Positions 22,759 through 32,000 of a stretch of DNA of 32,000 bases are shown here, in pieces (position 1 is the first letter of the stretch; each line of letters opens with the position of its first letter). The notes beneath the pieces were generated by a model, which searched no databases, was not told where the DNA came from, and saw only the letters and a program-made list of their open reading frames with translations. Where the stretch lies: the NCBI RefSeq assembly GCF_014518315.1, contig NZ_JACVEL010000008.1, positions 48,016-80,015 of the forward strand, written 5' to 3'. The DNA comes from Taishania pollutisoli (GTDB lineage: Bacteria; Bacteroidota; Bacteroidia; Flavobacteriales_D; Crocinitomicaceae). The translations under genes and the position numbers were made by a program.

Positions 22759-23538
22759 TTAATTTCTATTGCGAATTTCATTCAACGCACCGTCCCACAG
22801 GTTAATACGTTGTTGCAGTGCCTGTATCACGGCCTGTTGTGCTTCTTCCCAATTGGAATCTGATTCACCGCACAAATTAGAAGTCATGTCCAGTGCCAAA
22901 TGACTGTGATGATCACCATCCACTTCGATGTGACGTTCCAGGTAATATTTGTAAATGGAGACACTTTCCGGGAATGTTTGTTCAATATCTTTTACGATGG
23001 AAATGAACATTTCAGGAATTAAGTCCTCGCGCCCGAATGTAAATACAGCCGACTGCAAATACGGTTTACCACTGTTTACCACTTCAAAAGTCGTGTTAAT
23101 GAAATCACGGATCGCCGGAGCTACATTTGCGGCTTCAAATGCTTGTTCAAAATCTCCGGTTTGTTTCATCACTTCCAAAAACGCTGTGATTTTTGTTGTA
23201 TCAGCACCACACTGTTGCATGGCTTCCAGGTACAACTCAAAATGGCTTTTACGGTTGCCTTCGTGATCCAGATCCGATTCTTCACCTGCAACGATTTCGT
23301 TGATCAGATAACGGGTGGTTCCATTACCAACGGGAAACCACGGAACGGTGGTACACGTCAGGTTGATTTGCAAAACTTTCAGTAAAGACATGAAATCCCA
23401 TACGGCAAATACATGGTATTCCATGAAAATCTTGAGGTCATCCAGACTTTTAACGGATGTATACAATTCGTGGTTAATAATCTGTTGTCGTAGTGGTTCG
23501 ATTGATTGATAAATCTGTTGTACGCGTTGTTCTGTCAT
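22759..23538 (-). CDS. DUF3050-like protein (heme-oxygenase-like helical fold)
   Basis: All-helical 259 aa. The N-terminal segment INHELYTSVKSLDDLKIFMEYHVFAVWDFMSLLK matches my memory of DUF3050. Several conserved-looking His/Glu clusters are present (HFELYLEAM, LERHIEVDGDHHSH). Confidence 0.55.
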   Translation of the reverse strand: MTEQRVQQIYQSIEPLRQQIINHELYTSVKSLDDLKIFMEYHVFAVWDFMSLLKVLQINLTCTTVPWFPVGNGTTRYLINEIVAGEESDLDHEGNRKSHFELYLEAMQQCGADTTKITAFLEVMKQTGDFEQAFEAANVAPAIRDFINTTFEVVNSGKPYLQSAVFTFGREDLIPEMFISIVKDIEQTFPESVSIYKYYLERHIEVDGDHHSHLALDMTSNLCGESDSNWEEAQQAVIQALQQRINLWDGALNEIRNRN

Positions 23539-23564
23539 AGTTCAACTAAAATCTGATAAGGGTG

Positions 23565-23572
23565 CAAAAGTA
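23565..23572 (-). promoter_or_regulatory. -7 box (TAnnTTTG) upstream of the DUF3050-like gene
   Basis: The plus strand reads CAAAAGTA, which is TACTTTTG on the minus strand, 26 nt before the start at 23538. Confidence 0.45.
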
Positions 23573-23630
23573 CATAATTACTGTGATACTTTCCTATCAA
23601 TCAGAGCAACATTCCCTTAAATAATATGCG

Positions 23631-24512
23631 TCAATAACTGGAAGTACTTCCCCCAATGTTTTCAACCGGATGCCAGGTTGTTTTCAACTCCATGCAATCC
23701 GTGATTTGATACAATCCCTGTGCGTCCGCTTTGCTCCAATCGGTCTGCATTTCGATCACGCGTTTCAAATTCAGCGCACTGCTTTTTCGCAGAGAAGCAT
23801 TCAGTTCTTTCGAATCCGATCCCAATACGATTGCGTTCACATCCATGTGTGTTCCCAAAACACTTGCAGGTTCGTCCGGTTTTCCTGTGAGAATATTCAC
23901 CACACCTCCGGGAACATCCGAAGAGTTGATCACTTCAGCAAACGTAACTGCACACAAGGGTAAGTTTTCAGCAGCGAGTACAACAACCGTATTTCCGCTC
24001 GCAATGACAGGAATTACCTGTGAAATTAAGCCAATCAGAGAAGTTGACTGATCCGCAATGATACCGATCACGCCCATTGGTTGATACACCGAAAAATTAA
24101 AATGTGATGATGTCACCGGATTCACGCTACCTGTCACCTGTGAAACTTTATCACACCATCCTGCATAATAAACCACACGATCGATACTTGCTTCCACTTC
24201 CTGCTGCGCCGCTTTTTGCGTGGATCCCTGCAATACCAGTTCTTCCACAAATTGTGCTTTTCTGCCTTCCAGCATTTCAGCTATGCGGTATAGGATCTGA
24301 CTTCTGTTGAAAGCTGCGCGCTCCGACCAGGATCCAAATGCTTTCCGGGCAGCAACCACCGCATTTTTTGCATCTTTTTTCGAACACAAACAGACATTAC
24401 CCAGTGGCTCCCCTTTTTTATTTAAAGGAACGTAATAACGACCTGATTCCGTTCTCGGAAATGCCCCTCCGATATAAATCTTATATGTTTTTATTATTTC
24501 CAAACGACTCAT
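23631..24512 (-). CDS. aldehyde dehydrogenase-like protein lacking the catalytic domain
   Basis: 293 aa. It aligns with the N-terminal cofactor-binding half of the neighbouring 488-aa ALDH (YIGG..., VVYYAGWCDK, GNTVVVL, PGGVVNILTG). It then jumps from the position of ELGG straight to the C-terminal tail. See the finding at 23631..24512. Confidence 0.8.
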   Translation of the reverse strand: MSRLEIIKTYKIYIGGAFPRTESGRYYVPLNKKGEPLGNVCLCSKKDAKNAVVAARKAFGSWSERAAFNRSQILYRIAEMLEGRKAQFVEELVLQGSTQKAAQQEVEASIDRVVYYAGWCDKVSQVTGSVNPVTSSHFNFSVYQPMGVIGIIADQSTSLIGLISQVIPVIASGNTVVVLAAENLPLCAVTFAEVINSSDVPGGVVNILTGKPDEPASVLGTHMDVNAIVLGSDSKELNASLRKSSALNLKRVIEMQTDWSKADAQGLYQITDCMELKTTWHPVENIGGSTSSY

Positions 24513-24514
24513 AG

Positions 24515-24684
24515 TTTTTAATTATCAAGTTTTTTAATTATCAATGCCTTGTAATTATCAATGCCTTGTAATTATCAATTATCAAAGGATTAATTATCAA
24601 AGGACGAGCCATACTGAAATTTCATTTCTGACATTTGATAATTGATAATTTAGTAATTGATAATTTAGTAATTGATCATTCAGT
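24515..24684. repeat. composite inverted-repeat block A (AATTATCAA copies, spacer, TTGATAATT copies)
   Basis: Exact AATTATCAA at 24520, 24536, 24553, 24570, 24577 and 24592. A 17-nt tandem TAATTATCAATGCCTTG lies at 24535..24579 (2.6 copies). Exact TTGATAATT at 24635, 24642 and 24657, with variant TTGATCATT at 24672. Segments 24570..24585 and 24635..24650 are perfectly complementary (16 bp). Confidence 0.9.
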
Positions 24685-24694
24685 ACTTATTCAT

Positions 24695-25096
24695 TCAACA
24701 TTTATAATTTTTACTTCTTTTCACATTTTCTTTCGTACGAATACTAATTGTTTTGATGATTTTAAGTAACTCCTCCGCTTCCTGACATAATGGTTGCAGT
24801 GTTTCTTTCTCTTCATCAATATATTCAATCAGTAATTCCATCCAATATATACTTTCATCACATTCTTTCTGGCAAATAGCCAGTTTATGTATAAAATCAG
24901 CTTTACTTTCTGCATTTTTCGCTTCTCTCATATTTGCTCCGACAGAAGTTGCAGATCGAAATAATTGATTTGTTATAATAAACTCTCTGTGCCTTTCTTT
25001 CAAATACTTACAGGTTCTTATCGTGTTTAATGCAAAATCGAAACTTCTTTCTTTTATATCTTTATTGAATTGACTCATAACGGGTTCCTTTTCCAT
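24695..25096 (-). CDS. four-helix-bundle protein (TIGR02436 / PF05635 '23S rRNA intervening sequence protein', Avd-related family)
   Basis: 133 aa. Family signature FRSATSVGANMREAKNAESKADFIHKLAICQKECDESIYWMELL. AT-rich. Flanked by repeat blocks. An alternative ATG is at 25078. Confidence 0.85.
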   Translation of the reverse strand: MEKEPVMSQFNKDIKERSFDFALNTIRTCKYLKERHREFIITNQLFRSATSVGANMREAKNAESKADFIHKLAICQKECDESIYWMELLIEYIDEEKETLQPLCQEAEELLKIIKTISIRTKENVKRSKNYKC

Positions 25097-25100
25097 TCAA

Positions 25101-25274
25101 GTTAATCAATAGTTTCTAATTATCAATGTCTTATGTTTATATTTTTTTAATTATCAATGGTTGAATTATCAGTTATCAATGGTTAAATTATCAAGTATTA
25201 AGACTGGTATCTCACTCCCACCACTTGATAATTGATAATTCAGTAATTGATAATTTAGTAATTGATCACTCAGT
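25101..25274. repeat. composite inverted-repeat block B (homologous to block A)
   Basis: Exact AATTATCAA at 25118, 25149 and 25186, with one-mismatch copies at 25101, 25164 and 25171. Exact TTGATAATT at 25225, 25232 and 25247, with variant TTGATCACT at 25262. Segment 25222..25274 matches 24632..24684 at 50 of 53 positions. Confidence 0.9.
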
Positions 25275-25276
25275 CT

Positions 25277-26734
25277 TTACTTCAAATACGCACTTAGCCC
25301 ATGCAATCCACCTTCTCTTCCGTATCCGCTTTCCTTGAATCCTCCGAACGGTGATGACGGATCAAAACGATTATAGGTGTTCCCCCAAACGACCCCTGCA
25401 TTTAACTTAGAAGTCAGGTTAAACAAACGGGAGCCTTTATCTGACCAAACTCCTGCTGCCAGTCCATACGGCGAATTATTTGCCTTTTGAATCACTTCAT
25501 CAACGGTACGGAATGTCTGAATCGTCAGTACGGGACCAAAAATTTCTTCCTGGGCAATGCGACTCGATTGTGCCACGTTTGTAAACAATGTTGGACGGCA
25601 ATAAAAACCATTCGCAGGAACCCTACATTCCGGTTGATACAGTTCTGCTCCTTCCTCCACTCCCAGTTGAATGTACTGATGAATTGTTTTTAATTGTTTC
25701 TCCGAATTAATTGCACCGATATCGGTGTTTTTGTCTAACGGATTCCCAACGATCAACGATTGCATCCGATCTTTGAGTTTACGCACAACTATATCAGCAA
25801 CATTTTCCTGAACAAACAAACGGGAGCCTGCACAGCAAACATGTCCCTGATTAAAGAAAATACCATTCACAATTCCTTCTACAGCCTGATCAATCGGTGC
25901 GTCATCCAGAATAATGTTGGCGGATTTCCCTCCCAGTTCCAATGTACATTTTTTGCCCATTTCCATTGCAATTTCGTGGATGCGTTTTCCAACAGGTGTT
26001 GATCCTGTAAAAGCAACTTTATCGACATCTTCGTGACGAACGATTGCTTCTCCGGTATCTCCATACCCGGTAACAATGTTTACAACCCCGTCAGGTAATC
26101 CTGCATCCCGGATCAATTCTGCCAGTTTCAATGCCGTCAACGGGGTGGTCTCAGCAGGTTTCAGTACCACTGTATTTCCACACGCTAACGCCGGTGCTAT
26201 TTTCCATGCAGCCATCAGCAACGGGAAATTCCACGGAATAATTTGCCCGGCAACTCCCAATGACTCTACTTTTCGGTTGGGAAATGCATATTCGAGTTTA
26301 TCCGCCCAACCCGCATAGTAGAAAAAGTGATTTGCAACCAGCGGAACATCTACATCACGGGATTCACGGATGGTTTTTCCTGCATCCAATGTTTCAATCA
26401 CAGCAAATTCACGCGCACGATCCTGAATCAATCGGGCAATACGAAACAGGTATTTTCCCCGTTCCTTACCAGACATATTCTTCCAGATCTCATTGTATGC
26501 CTTTCTTGCTGCTTTTACTGCTTTGTCCACATCTGTTTCATCTGCCTGCGCGATGGCAGCCAATACTTCTCCTGTTGCAGGATTAATGGTATCAAAATAT
26601 TTTCCGGAATGCGGTTTTACAAATTTACCTCCGATGAACAGATCATATTTTTTTTGAAGTTGAATGTGAGAGGTTCCTTCTAAAGAAGAAGAATAATTCC
26701 ATTCAATACCTTCTGTTTTTTTATTCTTTGCCAT
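25277..26734 (-). CDS. NAD(P)-dependent aldehyde dehydrogenase (full length)
   Basis: All canonical ALDH motifs are present: IIPWNFP, VVLKPAE, FTGST, LELGGKS, catalytic Cys in FFNQGHVCCAGSR, and EEIFGPV. The track start 26743 is TTG; the first ATG is at 26734, 12 nt after the deoC stop. Confidence 0.92.
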   Translation of the reverse strand: MAKNKKTEGIEWNYSSSLEGTSHIQLQKKYDLFIGGKFVKPHSGKYFDTINPATGEVLAAIAQADETDVDKAVKAARKAYNEIWKNMSGKERGKYLFRIARLIQDRAREFAVIETLDAGKTIRESRDVDVPLVANHFFYYAGWADKLEYAFPNRKVESLGVAGQIIPWNFPLLMAAWKIAPALACGNTVVLKPAETTPLTALKLAELIRDAGLPDGVVNIVTGYGDTGEAIVRHEDVDKVAFTGSTPVGKRIHEIAMEMGKKCTLELGGKSANIILDDAPIDQAVEGIVNGIFFNQGHVCCAGSRLFVQENVADIVVRKLKDRMQSLIVGNPLDKNTDIGAINSEKQLKTIHQYIQLGVEEGAELYQPECRVPANGFYCRPTLFTNVAQSSRIAQEEIFGPVLTIQTFRTVDEVIQKANNSPYGLAAGVWSDKGSRLFNLTSKLNAGVVWGNTYNRFDPSSPFGGFKESGYGREGGLHGLSAYLK

Positions 26735-26746
26735 ATCATTCAAGCA

Positions 26747-27667
26747 TTAATCGATTGAAAAATAATCCGTCGATTGATAGATTCCGGTTTCTTGTTTTAC
26801 AATTTGCATCAATACATCATTCGCCAGGCTGCTGGCTCCGAAGCGAAACCATTCATTGGTAAGCCACTTTCCACCCAATGTTTCGTTGACCATAACCAGG
26901 TTATGTAACGCCAATTTTGCATTGGAAATACCTCCGGCAGGTTTCATACCGATCATGATTCCTGTTTTATCGTAATAATCTTTGATGGCCATTAGCATGG
27001 TATAAGTTACCTGCATTGTAGCAGCCGGTTGGATTTTTCCTGTTGATGTTTTAATAAAATCAGCACCTGCATAAATGGCAATATCACTTGCCTTGCGCAC
27101 ATTATCCAACGTGACAAGTTCACCTGTTTCCAAAATTACTTTCAGTCGTGATTTTCCACATGCTTCTTTAATCGCAGCAATTTCATCAAACACGAAATTG
27201 TACTCGCCCGACAGAAATTTTCCGCGGGAAATAACCATGTCGATTTCATCCGCTCCGTTATCCAATGCCAGCTTCGTATCTGTCAGTTTGATATTCAAAT
27301 CCGCCTGACCAGAGGGAAATGCAGTTGACACAGATGCAATTTTAACCTCCGGATTTCGCAGAGATTCTCTTGCTACTTTCACCATTGACGGATACACACA
27401 AACAGCGGCAACTGTTGGTAATCCGGGATGTGAATCGTGAAGATGTTCTGCTTTGTAACACATCTGGCGTACTTTATTGGGGGTATCCTTTCCCTCCAAT
27501 GTTGTGAGATCAATCATATTGAGCGCCAACTTCAATCCTTGTAATTTAGACGCCCCTTTGAGACTGCGTGTCTGGAAACGCGCAACCCGCTCTTCCACTC
27601 CTACTTTATCCACTTTGGGTGATTGAGAAAAATCGATGGGTTCAGTTTTATTTACGGTACTTCTCAT
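26747..27667 (-). CDS. deoC: deoxyribose-phosphate aldolase (long form)
   Basis: Class I aldolase TIM barrel with the Schiff-base lysine motif ADFIKTSTGK and GMKPAGGI. The 306-aa long-form N-terminus is present. Confidence 0.88.
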   Translation of the reverse strand: MRSTVNKTEPIDFSQSPKVDKVGVEERVARFQTRSLKGASKLQGLKLALNMIDLTTLEGKDTPNKVRQMCYKAEHLHDSHPGLPTVAAVCVYPSMVKVARESLRNPEVKIASVSTAFPSGQADLNIKLTDTKLALDNGADEIDMVISRGKFLSGEYNFVFDEIAAIKEACGKSRLKVILETGELVTLDNVRKASDIAIYAGADFIKTSTGKIQPAATMQVTYTMLMAIKDYYDKTGIMIGMKPAGGISNAKLALHNLVMVNETLGGKWLTNEWFRFGASSLANDVLMQIVKQETGIYQSTDYFSID

Positions 27668-27802: not shown

Positions 27803-27860
27803 ATATCGTAATATCGTAATATCGTAATATCGTAATATCGTAATATCGTAATATCGTAAT
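27803..27860. repeat. perfect octanucleotide tandem repeat (ATATCGTA)x7 plus AT
   Basis: Counted directly: seven identical 8-nt units at 27803..27858, then AT. It lies in the divergent intergenic region between deoC (start 27667, minus) and the 27933 gene (plus). Confidence 0.95.
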
Positions 27861-27932
27861 AAAAGTATTCCTGATTTATGGAATTTTAATGATTATTCAT
27901 CTTATCAGAATGCAACACTTAAAGACGCAACC

Positions 27933-28658
27933 ATGAAAAAGAACAGAGTTACCTATATTCTTGATGTCCCGAAGCCGTGTCATGAAAACTGGAACACAAT
28001 GACACCAGATGACAAAGGAAGATTTTGTGCGCAATGCTCCAAAACCGTCATTGACTTTACCCGGATGAATGATCATCAAATTGTTCAGTTACTGGAAAAC
28101 TCTGATTCAAGAGTTTGTGGTCATGTAACGACAGATCAATTAAACAGAACGATCAGTTCAAACGAGCCGATTTTTCAACGAACATTTTACCCGCTCCCTC
28201 AATTATTATCCGGATTGTTGCTTTTAGGGTTACCTTCCTGCGATTTTGCGCAACAACAAATACCAGAACCAAAGCAACCACACCTCCTATTGGGAAAAGT
28301 CGTCCAACATCCGGAATACATAGAATCAAACAACAAAATAAAAGGGACAATAATTGATTCATTAACTTCCGAAGTGCTTCCAAACATCAAACTTCGGCTT
28401 TTTAATGATACTGTGATCATCGCTTCTACATATACGGACATTGATGGTAACTTTAACCTGGAGCTCCCCTCTGGAACACATGAAGATCTCCGGTTAGTTA
28501 TTCTTTCTCCTTACAATGAATACCCAGAGAAAATAATTCCCGTCAACAAGGCAATTGATGTGCCATGGGATAAAAAAATATACCTCACCCCCAGACCTGT
28601 TACACTGGAAGGTGAGGTAATTTATACAAAGCAGCCGAACGGAAAACGGAAAAAATAA
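27933..28658 (+). CDS. single-pass membrane protein: N-terminal Cys/His zinc-ribbon-like motif plus CarboxypepD_reg-like domain
   Basis: C16-H17...C32-x2-C35 (PCHENWNTM...RFCAQCSKTVIDFT). One hydrophobic segment (LPQLLSGLLLLGLPS). Then GTIIDSLTSEVLPNIKLRLF...TDIDGNFNLELP, typical of the carboxypeptidase regulatory-like fold. Confidence 0.6.
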   Translation: MKKNRVTYILDVPKPCHENWNTMTPDDKGRFCAQCSKTVIDFTRMNDHQIVQLLENSDSRVCGHVTTDQLNRTISSNEPIFQRTFYPLPQLLSGLLLLGLPSCDFAQQQIPEPKQPHLLLGKVVQHPEYIESNNKIKGTIIDSLTSEVLPNIKLRLFNDTVIIASTYTDIDGNFNLELPSGTHEDLRLVILSPYNEYPEKIIPVNKAIDVPWDKKIYLTPRPVTLEGEVIYTKQPNGKRKK

Positions 28659-31331: not shown

Positions 31332-31453
31332 ATTTTCGATTTATTAGCTACTTATTACAAGGGGCGAATTTACAATTTTTAAAACAGGAAATCCTACCTT
31401 CCGACAGATAAAATTTTATTCCCTCGTTTTCAGTTCAACCCATGATAATTGAG

Positions 31454-31461
31454 TAATTTTG
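31454..31461 (+). promoter_or_regulatory. -7 box (TAnnTTTG) upstream of the MFS transporter gene
   Basis: Exact TAATTTTG, 7 nt before the ATG at 31469. It overlaps a solo copy of the TGATAATTNAGTAATT repeat unit. Confidence 0.4.
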
Positions 31462-31468
31462 TACCATC

Positions 31469-32000
31469 ATGTTCAGAGGGTATAGCAGGAATTTTTGGTT
31501 GTTGTCGGTGGGGGTACTATTTTTTATGACGAGTTTCAACTTACTCATTCCCGAACTGAACACCATGATGGAACGACTTGGCGCAGGAGATAAAAAAGGA
31601 CTTGTGTTTATCTTTTTTTCTATCACAGCAGCTATTTCACGACCTATTTCAGGAAAATTATCGGATACCATCGGTAGAAAAAAGGTGATGTACATCGGAA
31701 TTCTAATCGGAGCAATCACTTGTATTTTATACCCTTATATAGAAAGTATTCTATTGTTTCTTCTCTTGAGACTTGCACACGGTTTCAGTGCAGGGGTTCA
31801 TCCGACCGGAGCAACAGCAATGGTAACCGATCTGCTGCCTCCCAACAAACGGGGACAAGGGATGGGTATATGGGGAGTATTTGTCTCTGTCGGTTTCGGT
31901 TTCGGACAAATGATTTCTGCTGTGGTTATCAATCATCTCGGATATAACGCCTTATTTATTGTCGCATCAAGTTTTGCAGTCGTTTCAGGAATTTTACTGA
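31469..32000 (+). CDS. MFS transporter (5' part, runs off the window)
   Basis: Not in the ORF track because no stop is reached. My own translation from ATG 31469 is MFRGYSRNFWLLSVGVLFFMTSFNLLIPE...GKLSDTIGRKKVMYIGILIG...LRLAHGFSAGVHPTGATAMVTDLLPPNKRGQGMGIWG..., which contains the MFS motif A (G-x-L-S-D-x-x-GRK). An in-frame TAA lies at 31454. Confidence 0.8.
   Translation, partial: MFRGYSRNFWLLSVGVLFFMTSFNLLIPELNTMMERLGAGDKKGLVFIFFSITAAISRPISGKLSDTIGRKKVMYIGILIGAITCILYPYIESILLFLLLRLAHGFSAGVHPTGATAMVTDLLPPNKRGQGMGIWGVFVSVGFGFGQMISAVVINHLGYNALFIVASSFAVVSGILL

Follow-up and report, generated by a model that had tools for sequence, protein, structure and literature searches.

Inverted heptamer arrays around a four-helix-bundle gene in a deoC-ALDH operon: a putative IVS-type non-autonomous cassette

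How does a small gene of the four-helix-bundle (4HB) family come to lie inside a metabolic operon with a block of related repeats on either side, and what might those blocks do? The locus that raises these questions lies in a 32-kb window, by which we mean the whole stretch of DNA analyzed. Intervening sequences (IVSs) of 23S rRNA that carry an S23p ORF have been known since the early 1990s and occur in Leptospira, Coxiella burnetii, Brucella and Xanthomonas, and a very large family of stand-alone genes for a 'four helix bundle protein' is found in Bacteroidota and cyanobacteria. To our knowledge, IVSs, stand-alone 4HB genes and heptamer repeats have been known separately for decades and remain unexplained, and we know of no characterized member of the 4HB family other than Avd, the accessory protein of diversity-generating retroelements (DGRs).

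Genes and repeat blocks of the locus

The cassette is surrounded by genes for deoC, ALDH, ALDH-like, DUF3050 and PNP_UDP_1 proteins. A co-oriented string on the minus strand begins with deoC (26747..27667; TIGR00126, E 1.5e-53) and continues with a full-length ALDH gene (25277..26743, probable ATG at 26734; PF00171, E 4e-168), which forms the upstream flank of the insertion. The downstream flank is an ALDH-like gene on the same strand (23631..24512) whose 293-aa product represents the N-terminal half of the ALDH fold, covering PF00171 positions 16-232 of 461. This product has thousands of homologs of ~293 aa and is 100% identical to a protein of Crocinitomicaceae bacterium CZZ-1. These profile matches bear out the identities given to deoC, ALDH and the ALDH-like gene in an earlier reading made without database searches (the sequence-only reading).

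An interval of 764 nt separates the ALDH stop from the ALDH-like ATG. It is occupied, again on the minus strand, by an upstream repeat block (25101..25274) that follows the ALDH stop and precedes the 4HB ATG, the 133-aa 4HB gene itself (24695..25096, with a second in-frame ATG at 25078 as an alternative start) and a downstream repeat block (24515..24684) in the spacer from the 4HB stop to the ALDH-like ATG. The gaps between blocks and adjacent codons are 2, 4, 10 and 2 nt, as had been claimed, and the ORF was correctly described as AT-rich, with a G+C content of 0.25-0.32 over 24500-25300 vs 0.42-0.49 in the flanking genes. The cassette has no second ORF, and no transposase, reverse transcriptase or integrase adjoins it in the window. 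Neither a reverse transcriptase nor a TR/VR repeat pair was present among the genes and repeats near the 4HB gene, the whole window not having been scanned for reverse transcriptases; no repeats other than the heptamer blocks were seen. An Rfam scan of 23500-26000 with E up to 1 returned no rRNA or other family, only one chance snoRNA match.

Assignment of the 133-aa ORF to the four-helix-bundle family, originally made by eye, was substantiated by an HMM search, which matched both PF05635 (E 3e-20, 72.7 bits, cut-off 33.8) and TIGR02436 (E 2e-26, 92.4 bits, cut-off 24). A relative with a solved four-helix-bundle structure, PDB 2RLD, matched over residues 13-122 (E 1.9e-23), and PADLOC and PHROGs scans of the protein gave zero matches. 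The dN/dS of the gene against its orthologs is 0.06-0.21, and by this comparison the 4HB protein is shown to be under purifying selection and to have been kept for long.

The motif AATTATCAA has 16 exact matches in the window vs 1.0 expected (the largest number in a shuffle was 3), and 15 of the 16 fall in the two spacers (24515-24684 and 25101-25274), at the positions originally reported. A supposed one-mismatch copy at 25101 (GTTAATCAA) turned out to contain three mismatches. According to Tandem Repeats Finder (TRF), TTGATAA is repeated with period 7 at 24635-24680 and at 25225-25266, and both blocks also contain a tandem of period 15 (24639-24685 and 25229-25274). TRF further detected a period of 17 nt at 24519-24579 and one of 22 nt at 25151-25193, and copies of TGATAATTNAGTAAT, a 15-nt unit, are found at 24643, 24658, 25233 and 25248. 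Thus, the repeat itself is real, but by TRF the 9-mer unit proposed for it gives way to a degenerate tandem heptamer, TGATAAT, with 7-nt units interspersed with 8- to 10-nt units. The upstream and downstream blocks repeat one another in direct orientation, with 83% identity over 77 nt, and are the only two such blocks within the 32 kb.

Judged from the repeats and predicted folds, each block would form a long, interrupted hairpin in sense RNA, which upholds the claim that its arms can pair. In the upstream block, an ATTATCA-type 5' arm (~25225-25270) and a loop (~25195-25224) precede a TGATAAT-type 3' arm (25101-25194) that ends 4 nt before the 4HB ATG, and the predicted stability is -39.2 kcal/mol (z -4.3). 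The downstream block has the same layout, with an ATTATCA-type 5' arm at ~24635-24687, a loop at ~24601-24634 and a TGATAAT-type 3' arm at 24515-24600 that contains the 17-nt tandem and ends 2 nt before the ALDH-like ATG (-37.3 kcal/mol, z -3.8); here the perfect pairing reported earlier was confirmed as 16-17 bp between 24570-24586 and 24634-24650. For each block, 0 of 200 shuffles were as stable, and both hairpins were retained when the whole 791-nt region was folded. Complementarity between the upstream and the downstream block is also present.

The ALDH/ALDH-like junction in related genomes

The order deoC-ALDH-ALDH-like is kept in every relative examined. In three of these relatives, the site is empty, with the ALDH stop lying 1, 2 or 16 nt from the ALDH-like ATG and with neither the 4HB gene, the repeats nor a solo hairpin at the junction. 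These empty orthologous sites uphold the proposal that a self-contained hairpin-ORF-hairpin cassette has been inserted into the deoC-ALDH operon, and the absence of the blocks along with the ORF from these three junctions argues against ordinary local intergenic structure. As far as can be judged by comparison of orthologous loci, then, the cassette is shown to be inserted precisely where two cistrons meet that in its absence are separated by 1-16 nt, and in the same direction as these cistrons. The same junction is filled in diverged Fluviicola-like genomes whose 4HB proteins are 68-95% identical, indicating that the insertion is old. The arrays change quickly, since spacers of 153, 175 and 212 nt are found beside an identical 4HB protein. 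The exact 9-mer is kept at the locus across ~30% divergence of the 4HB protein, in differing arrangements.

In one relative, L001, the loops of the two blocks are also homologous, and its 4HB gene differs from that of the window by a synonymous divergence of 0.089, far below the 0.34-0.76 of the flanking genes. No target-site duplication was found beyond the arrays, and a direct repeat of at least 12 nt outside the arrays was present in only 1 of 56 loci; very short duplications are beyond the power of this search.

Heptamer arrays at other 4HB genes

We also considered 68 metagenome loci picked by the 4HB protein only, representing one sub-family defined by two peptide patterns, and counted as adjacent any period-7 array within 150 nt of the 4HB ORF. 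Within this distance there were 84 period-7 arrays (4.03 per kb), vs 27 elsewhere in the same loci (0.089 per kb), a 45-fold difference in density, and periods of 5, 6 and 8-11 were essentially absent. An adjacent array was detected in 55 of the 68 loci, the other 13 having none by the criteria used; upstream arrays, present in 34 of 68, lie at a median of ~3 nt from the ATG, and the median spacers around the 4HB genes of this set are ~30-40 nt. The arrays have a fixed polarity, TGAnnnn units facing the ATG upstream and nnnnTCA units following the stop downstream, with TGA in the sense strand of 30/40 upstream arrays and TCA in that of 35/44 downstream arrays (Fisher p 4.6e-12). Every reading frame meets a stop in 35 of the 40 upstream arrays when these are read in sense, and in 39 of the 44 downstream arrays when these are read in antisense. 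The heptamer itself varies from locus to locus (e.g., TGATTAG, TGAATTA, TGGGAGA and TAAGAGT) within the same architecture. For the 68 loci of this one sub-family, these comparisons mark inverted heptamer arrays as a family-wide hallmark of the 4HB genes.

The two flanks of a locus pair with each other better than flanks of different loci do (median -34.8 vs -24.6 kcal/mol, p 3.7e-9), and long-range complementarity clearly exceeds background in only 18 of 64 loci. The predicted stems were not more stable in sense than in antisense RNA (means -36.5 vs -38.8 kcal/mol; the difference ran the other way, with p 0.07), and there is therefore no G-U signature favoring an RNA-level over a DNA-level role. 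The upstream neighbor is co-oriented with the 4HB gene in 60 of 62 loci, and neighbors are non-homologous in most pairs of loci whose 4HB proteins are 65-79% identical.

Similar arrangements are found well beyond these loci. The pattern (AATTGAC/AATTGAT)n ... (RTCAATT)n surrounds a 4HB gene in three of four further phyla (cyanobacteria, Anaerolineae and Hydrogenedentes), with G+C-rich surroundings in the latter two, and in four of six IMG/VR contigs, whereas a Desulfobacterales cassette has a different upstream unit, TGGATAA. In these four phyla, the cassettes often lie between hsdS and hsdR. By comparison across these genomes, 4HB cassettes are shown to occupy many unrelated operons in several phyla.

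The sequence-only reading would have been weakened had the repeat been confined to this locus, but a search beyond the window found the motif elsewhere. Hairpins with the motif occur in other intergenic regions of two other Fluviicola MAGs, between convergent genes at L045 and divergent genes at L046, without a 4HB gene. Its suggested co-occurrence with 4HB genes was upheld only in part, in that some arrays do adjoin such genes but the motif is not exclusive to them; with only 5 of 120 TTGATAA arrays from genomes having a 4HB gene beside them, we dropped the idea that every such array marks one. A Pfam scan of 111 small ORFs neighboring TTGATAA arrays revealed no missed divergent 4HB members. 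For free arrays, the rule that TGA points forward before a start codon was not supported, as their 3' side faced a start in 39 cases and a stop in 52; the orientation of free TTGANAA arrays to genes is inconsistent. Free arrays with the same unit are found near 4HB loci, and elsewhere a gene of the Fur family has a single TTGATAA array beside it. The free arrays and hairpins, mostly without a 4HB gene, may have functions of their own.

Explanations and known systems

We favor, with a probability of about 0.6, the interpretation that the insert in the window is a mobile but non-autonomous cassette of the IVS type, and that stems formed by its inverted heptamer arrays are processed out of the operon RNA, both the processing and the mobility mechanism being inferred. 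The complementary arrays would pair in the operon transcript, forming two local hairpins in the window and, at many other loci, one long stem enclosing the 4HB ORF, and RNase III would cut these stems as in the 23S rRNA IVSs with the same ORF family. Such cleavage could let the insert reside in an operon or an rRNA without destruction of the flanking RNAs, while the arrays would supply three-frame stops on the incoming side. Spread would probably occur via the arrays, either by homologous recombination with similar dispersed arrays or hairpins or through an unknown trans-acting enzyme. Mobility of the cassette is supported by the comparative data, although it has not been demonstrated. RNase III-type processing is inferred from the precedent of the Coxiella IVS (PMC4990558) and has likewise not been demonstrated, there being no RNA data for mRNA-embedded cassettes.

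It is possible, although we consider it doubtful, that the arrays act at the DNA level only, a foldback-like non-autonomous element using them as terminal inverted repeats or for recombination; in one variant of this idea, a circle of the 4HB gene and one hairpin recombines into a solo hairpin to give hairpin-ORF-hairpin, and the reverse reaction is excision. The direct repetition of the window's blocks, the homologous loops in L001 and the solo hairpins with the same motif in Fluviicola genomes fit such a scheme, as do the occurrence of cassettes in unrelated contexts, their passage across phyla along with the arrays and the lack of sense/antisense asymmetry in stem stability. The low synonymous divergence of the 4HB gene from that of L001 would also be expected from recent exchange. 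However, no solo hairpin is left at the empty sites, neither a target-site duplication nor a linked recombinase was found, and co-orientation together with TGA-inward polarity fits a constraint at the level of the transcript, not recombination sites alone. Action at the DNA level is in any case compatible with the IVS-type interpretation and does not exclude it. We regard as unlikely, yet cannot exclude, that the arrays are binding sites of a pentameric Avd-like 4HB protein, serving autoregulation and perhaps action in trans on free arrays. Protein similarity does track the type of flanking heptamer (rho -0.15, a value that 3 of 500 permutations attained), and pairs at least 70% identical share a unit in 56% of cases vs ~10% background, but this correlation is confounded by common descent, and the AATTGAY unit flanks proteins only 34-41% identical to that of the window while closer relatives carry other units. 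The related Avd is essential for DGR retrohoming (PMC10053308), and heptamer arrays of unknown function have been recorded in phyla rich in the 4HB family (PMC4679880). Free arrays with a matching unit near 4HB loci and the retention of the exact 9-mer while its arrangement shifts would also suit a binding site; there are, however, no binding data, and binding of the 4HB protein to the arrays has not been demonstrated, nor do free TTGANAA arrays have a consistent orientation to genes.

The two remaining explanations do without any special tie to the 4HB gene. A merely accidental proximity of the 4HB gene to ordinary intergenic hairpins of REP type in this genome, serving as terminators or as stabilizers of mRNA, is suggested by the Fluviicola hairpins at L045 and L046, but it is very improbable given that the empty junctions lack hairpin and gene alike, that period-7 arrays with strict polarity are so strongly enriched beside 4HB ORFs and that arrays accompany the gene into G+C-rich genomes. 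The heptamer TGATAAT is also a half-site of the 7-1-7 Fur box, and the arrays could be read as a Fur-box-like operator, as a sigma-70-like TTGATA-N18-GATAAT promoter (11 matches vs 5.1 expected) or as a phase-variable simple-sequence switch. The array next to a Fur-family gene and the difference in array length between near-identical strains are in keeping with these possibilities, to which we give hardly any credence. Promoters of Bacteroidota have a consensus other than the sigma-70-like one, and the arrays lie outside ORFs. Moreover, homologous cassettes carry unrelated heptamers in the same architecture, so resemblance to a Fur box or to -35/-10 elements is not the property that matters, and both readings were set aside.

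These data link rRNA IVSs, stand-alone 4HB genes and the heptamer repeats of the same phyla: the genes lie almost always co-directionally in foreign operons between inward-facing, stop-containing arrays, the cassette is gained or lost at exact cistron junctions, and the arrays cross phyla with the gene. The IVS-type interpretation provides a testable model of how a gene could live harmlessly inside rRNA and mRNA operons, sets the element boundaries that any search for the mobility mechanism requires and suggests a nucleic acid with which proteins of the 4HB family might interact. More tentatively, PF05635 genes with inverted heptamer arrays might constitute an unrecognized class of non-autonomous mobile cassette, with 23S IVSs as its rRNA-borne subset and with a 4HB protein that, like Avd, binds the arrays or helps to copy them. 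If true, this would connect the unexplained heptamer repeats of cyanobacteria, Bacteroidota and Beggiatoaceae to the 4HB gene family. For annotation, it matters that the cassettes split operons, including those of type I restriction-modification, and that the arrays are particularly prone to variation in assembly and length. Our literature search, in which subscription journals were thinly covered, found no paper tying 4HB/PF05635 genes to heptamer arrays generally, and a prior description remains possible.

Among known mobile elements, REP/BIME sequences and MITEs are likewise short, dispersed imperfect palindromes without a transposase of their own that are tolerated in operons, but the arms at 4HB genes are tandem heptamers that vary by locus and bracket a conserved protein gene, and they lack an identified RAYT or parent IS. 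Integron cassettes similarly combine a promoterless ORF with a structured, variable inverted repeat, are co-directional and are transcribed from the host; 4HB cassettes differ in having no integrase, attI or cassette array, in lying at dispersed intercistronic junctions and in having heptamer arrays on both sides of the ORF. Unlike a classical transposon or IS, the 4HB cassette has neither its own transposase nor a detected target-site duplication. PF05635 resembles Avd (PMC10053308), a homologous small four-helix-bundle protein, but the 4HB gene of the window stands alone in a metabolic operon with no RT or TR/VR nearby. TAACTGA intergenic heptamer repeats were described in Beggiatoaceae, cyanobacteria and Bacteroidetes by MacGregor (2015; PMC4679880), who cites Mrazek (2007) for long simple sequence repeats and treats the arrays as free-standing regulatory repeats without mention of 4HB/IVS genes or of gene-bracketing inverted pairs. 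The two kinds of array share an intergenic location, the period of 7, a TGA-containing unit, three-frame stops, the same phyla, a frequent position just before a start codon and indels in 7-nt steps between strains, whereas those flanking 4HB genes are tied to one gene family and have a fixed polarity.

The closest parallel is with 23S IVSs, which have in common with the window cassette a PF05635 ORF co-oriented with the host RNA, complementary sequences that bound this ORF and form a stem in the host transcript (predicted only, for the window) and a sporadic distribution suggesting horizontal transfer. In the window, by contrast, the host RNA comes from an operon of protein-coding genes, whereas an IVS replaces the loop of helix 25 or 45 inside a 23S (or 16S) rRNA gene; there is one local hairpin per side instead of a single enclosing stem, and excision, which in IVSs is by RNase III without religation, has not been shown. 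The Coxiella burnetii IVS has two to three tandem GACAGAT heptamers (= TGACAGA) directly before its S23p ORF, their copy number differs among strains, and the 5' cut by RNase III has been mapped to the first of them (PMC4990558). The window cassette likewise has tandem heptamers just before its S23p/4HB ORF, but whereas the Coxiella ORF is reportedly in decay and probably goes untranslated, the 4HB protein of the window is under purifying selection.

Repeat blocks around the four-helix-bundle gene

The minus-strand ORF at 25096->24695 encodes a four-helix-bundle (4HB) protein of family PF05635/TIGR02436, related to PDB 2RLD according to profile and structure-database matches, confirming the assignment made in the sequence-only reading. 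That reading had also described the ORF region as AT-rich, and the G+C content of the cassette (the 4HB gene and both flanking repeat blocks) is in fact 0.25-0.32, compared to 0.42-0.49 in the flanks. The window contains 16 copies of AATTATCAA where 1.0 would be expected, 15 of them inside the two spacers (24515-24684 and 25101-25274), and the two blocks are direct repeats (83% identity across 77 nt), each containing inverted arms. Period-7 TTGATAA arrays were detected by TRF at 24635-24680 and 25225-25266, together with one period-15 array in each block, a period-17 array at 24519-24579 and a period-22 array at 25151-25193. Repeat counts, spacers, block homology and inverted arms were all as initially described; the sole error found concerns position 25101, where the supposed near-copy carries three mismatches. 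Folding of the blocks as sense (minus-strand) RNA gave predicted energies of -39.2 and -37.3 kcal/mol (z about -4), and both predicted hairpins were kept when the full 791 nt was folded.

Two other repeats in the window were observed. Between deoC and the divergently oriented plus-strand gene that starts at 27933, the intergenic region contains a perfect tandem array of the 8-nt unit ATATCGTA (7.4 copies, 27803-27861), whose sequence is unrelated to that of the heptamer blocks. A lone exact copy of the 15-nt unit TGATAATTGAGTAAT is present at 31443-31457, in the divergent promoter region upstream of a transporter gene starting near 31470, and shares bases with a TAnnTTTG-like Bacteroidota -7 box; this copy could be due to chance or could be an isolated member of the repeat family.

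Filled and empty deoC-ALDH-ALDH-like junctions

Strain CZZ-1 has a protein with 100% identity to the ALDH-like protein, and the source of the window is a Fluviicola-like Crocinitomicaceae bacterium. BLASTP homologues of the 4HB protein with 95%, 74% and 70% identity are all encoded at deoC-ALDH-4HB-ALDH-like loci with varying outer flanks, and their spacers (38-212 nt) retain AATTATCAA/TTGATAATT units. In three strains whose 4HB proteins are identical, the downstream spacer measures 153, 175 and 212 nt, implying that the arrays expand and contract quickly. In three relatives whose ALDH-like proteins are 70-72% identical, the ALDH stop codon and ALDH-like ATG are separated by 2, 1 and 16 nt, and neither a 4HB gene nor repeats were found at this junction. 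These empty sites imply that the 522-764 nt inserts are placed precisely where two cistrons otherwise nearly touch, supporting the initial proposal of a cassette inserted into an operon; judged from orthologous sequences, the insertion is old. The 4HB gene is under purifying selection, as indicated by dN/dS values of 0.06-0.21. In a neighbor-joining tree of deoC+ALDH+ALDH-like, a clean split between filled and empty loci was recovered in only 25/300 bootstraps, and the filled locus L007 clustered with two empty loci in 230/300. A single branch does not separate the two classes, implying either more than one gain or precise loss.

Several further observations concern this locus. At the same junction in L213 (3000-3430), the 4HB ORF appears to have lost its canonical start codon before helix 1 and the flanking heptamer arrays are largely gone; the copy is probably decaying. 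Between the window and locus L001, synonymous divergence is 0.089 in the 4HB gene (24695-25096 versus L001 4001-4402) and 0.34-0.76 in deoC, ALDH and ALDH-like, suggesting either that lineages exchanged the cassette recently or that its silent sites are strongly constrained. The conserved 293-aa ALDH-like protein (23631-24512) lacks the C-terminal half of the ALDH fold and consists of the N-terminal half alone, and its gene always lies downstream of full-length ALDH (25277-26743) and deoC, 1-16 nt from ALDH in L208, L211 and L212, where the cassette is absent; the two look like an uncharacterised two-gene ALDH pair.

Heptamer arrays beside 4HB genes in other genomes

The motif was also found in other genomes. 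A scan for three TTGATAATT copies separated by short gaps, covering a single genome from each GTDB species, matched at least 120 stretches in Bacteroidota, cyanobacteria, Ignavibacteria, Desulfonema, Planctomycetota and others, the majority of those listed being plain (TTGATAA)n arrays. The suggested co-occurrence with PF05635 genes held in part: among the matches listed, this was the sole recurrent neighbour family, but only 5 adjoin a 4HB gene, all 5 with AATTGAN-family arrays on both sides. Same-motif hairpins without a 4HB gene were found in two Fluviicola MAGs, one between divergent and one between convergent genes. Since arrays and hairpins mostly occur without the gene, the arrays are a wider phenomenon, inside which 4HB genes live. 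Separately, the 4HB gene of L100 (3469-4354) lies between very long arrays of 31 and 34 units in direct, not inverted, orientation, and the Candidatus Spongiihabitans chromosome (L040) is unusually array-dense, with seven separate TTGANAA-type arrays among small ORFs in 8 kb.

We then considered 80 metagenome loci picked solely for the resemblance of their 4HB proteins to the query (40-60% identity, a single sub-family), with ORFs and neighbours called by simple rules and ORF bounds set automatically in 68. In these 68 loci, the 150 nt on either side of the 4HB ORF hold 84 period-7 arrays (4.03 per kb), compared to 27 elsewhere (0.089 per kb); close to the ORF there are essentially no arrays of periods 5, 6 and 8-11. 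An array is adjacent in 55/68 loci, and the arrays abut the ATG, with a median gap of about 3 nt, as well as the stop codon. The unit varies by locus (TGATTAG, TGAATTA, TGAATTG, TGGGAGA, TAAGAGT, TGACAAT and others), and its polarity is fixed, with sense-strand TGA in 30/40 upstream arrays and the complement TCA in 35/44 downstream (Fisher p 4.6e-12). Upstream arrays are C-poor, with stops in all three frames in 35/40, and downstream arrays are G-poor. Predicted pairing is stronger between flanks of the same locus than of different loci (median -34.8 versus -24.6 kcal/mol, p 3.7e-9), falling below the control's 5th percentile in 18/64 loci. The upstream neighbour is co-oriented at 60/62 loci and both neighbours at 44/68, with median spacers of about 30-40 nt.

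Most 4HB pairs that are 65-79% identical lie beside non-homologous genes, yet such pairs tend to have their heptamer type in common. In this metagenome sample the neighbours represent 151 Pfam families, among which subunits of type I restriction-modification systems recur most. A second protein search, seeded by a cyanobacterial 4HB member, identified relatives 70-85% identical in cyanobacteria, Anaerolineae, Desulfobacterales and Hydrogenedentes. Heptamer arrays flank the gene in all four contexts fetched, as (AATTGAC/AATTGAT)n upstream and (RTCAATT)n downstream in three; the upstream unit of the Desulfobacterales locus is TGGATAA. The surroundings can be G+C-rich. The cyanobacterial and Anaerolineae cassettes sit exactly between hsdS and hsdR, and the Desulfobacterales 4HB gene lies upstream of a helicase-domain (DEAD/ResIII) gene (L221-L225; e.g., L222 2001-2354 and L223 1636-1989). 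The same flanking pattern occurs in 4/6 IMG/VR matches. A search for target-site duplications at cassettes found none, and no recombinase was linked to the cassette. In L142 (about 480-1100), a second copy of roughly the final 50 nt of the hsdS-like gene preceding the cassette appears to follow directly downstream of it, possibly the footprint of recombination within conserved hsdS ends; such a duplicated gene end was not observed as a general feature across cassette loci.

Possible mechanisms and relation to intervening sequences

The PF05635 family takes its name from ORFs inside 23S rRNA intervening sequences (IVSs), which have inverted repeats at their borders and are removed by RNase III. 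We conclude that the finding is real and rate the locus as an IVS-type element in mRNA operons. At the level of sequence, the data show exact insertion at a cistron junction with long retention under purifying selection, and a family-wide array architecture and polarity in unrelated operons of several phyla. In the absence of expression data, it can only be inferred that the arrays pair within the host transcript and that RNase III might cut them by analogy with rRNA IVSs, which would allow the cassette to be tolerated inside operons. All-frame stops may shield the cassette from incoming translation, and spread could proceed via array-to-array homology or an unknown trans factor.

The predicted stems are no more stable in sense than in antisense, which speaks against the RNA reading and leaves a purely DNA-level role, with the arrays serving as recombination sites, as a serious alternative. 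The correlation between 4HB protein and heptamer type would also fit binding of the arrays by the 4HB protein, for which there are no binding data, but this correlation is confounded by descent. The unrelated heptamers at homologous cassettes and the absence of a hairpin from empty sites weigh against reading the blocks as Fur boxes, promoters or plain REP elements.

The broad pattern behind the IVS-type reading, which ties together stand-alone 4HB genes, heptamer simple-sequence repeats and rRNA intervening sequences, is apparently undescribed; we found no paper on a general 4HB-heptamer association, with incomplete coverage of the literature. Arrays of the heptamer TAACTGA, described from Beggiatoaceae, cyanobacteria and Bacteroidetes and often located just 5' of start codons, carry three-frame stops and have no known function (MacGregor 2015, PMC4679880); the 4HB family is unmentioned in that work. 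In the Coxiella burnetii 23S IVS, 2-3 tandem heptamers GACAGAT directly precede the PF05635 ORF, in a copy number that differs among strains, and RNase III cleavage on the 5' side has been mapped to the first of them (PMC4990558); rotated, this unit reads TGACAGA and obeys the TGA rule of the cassette arrays.
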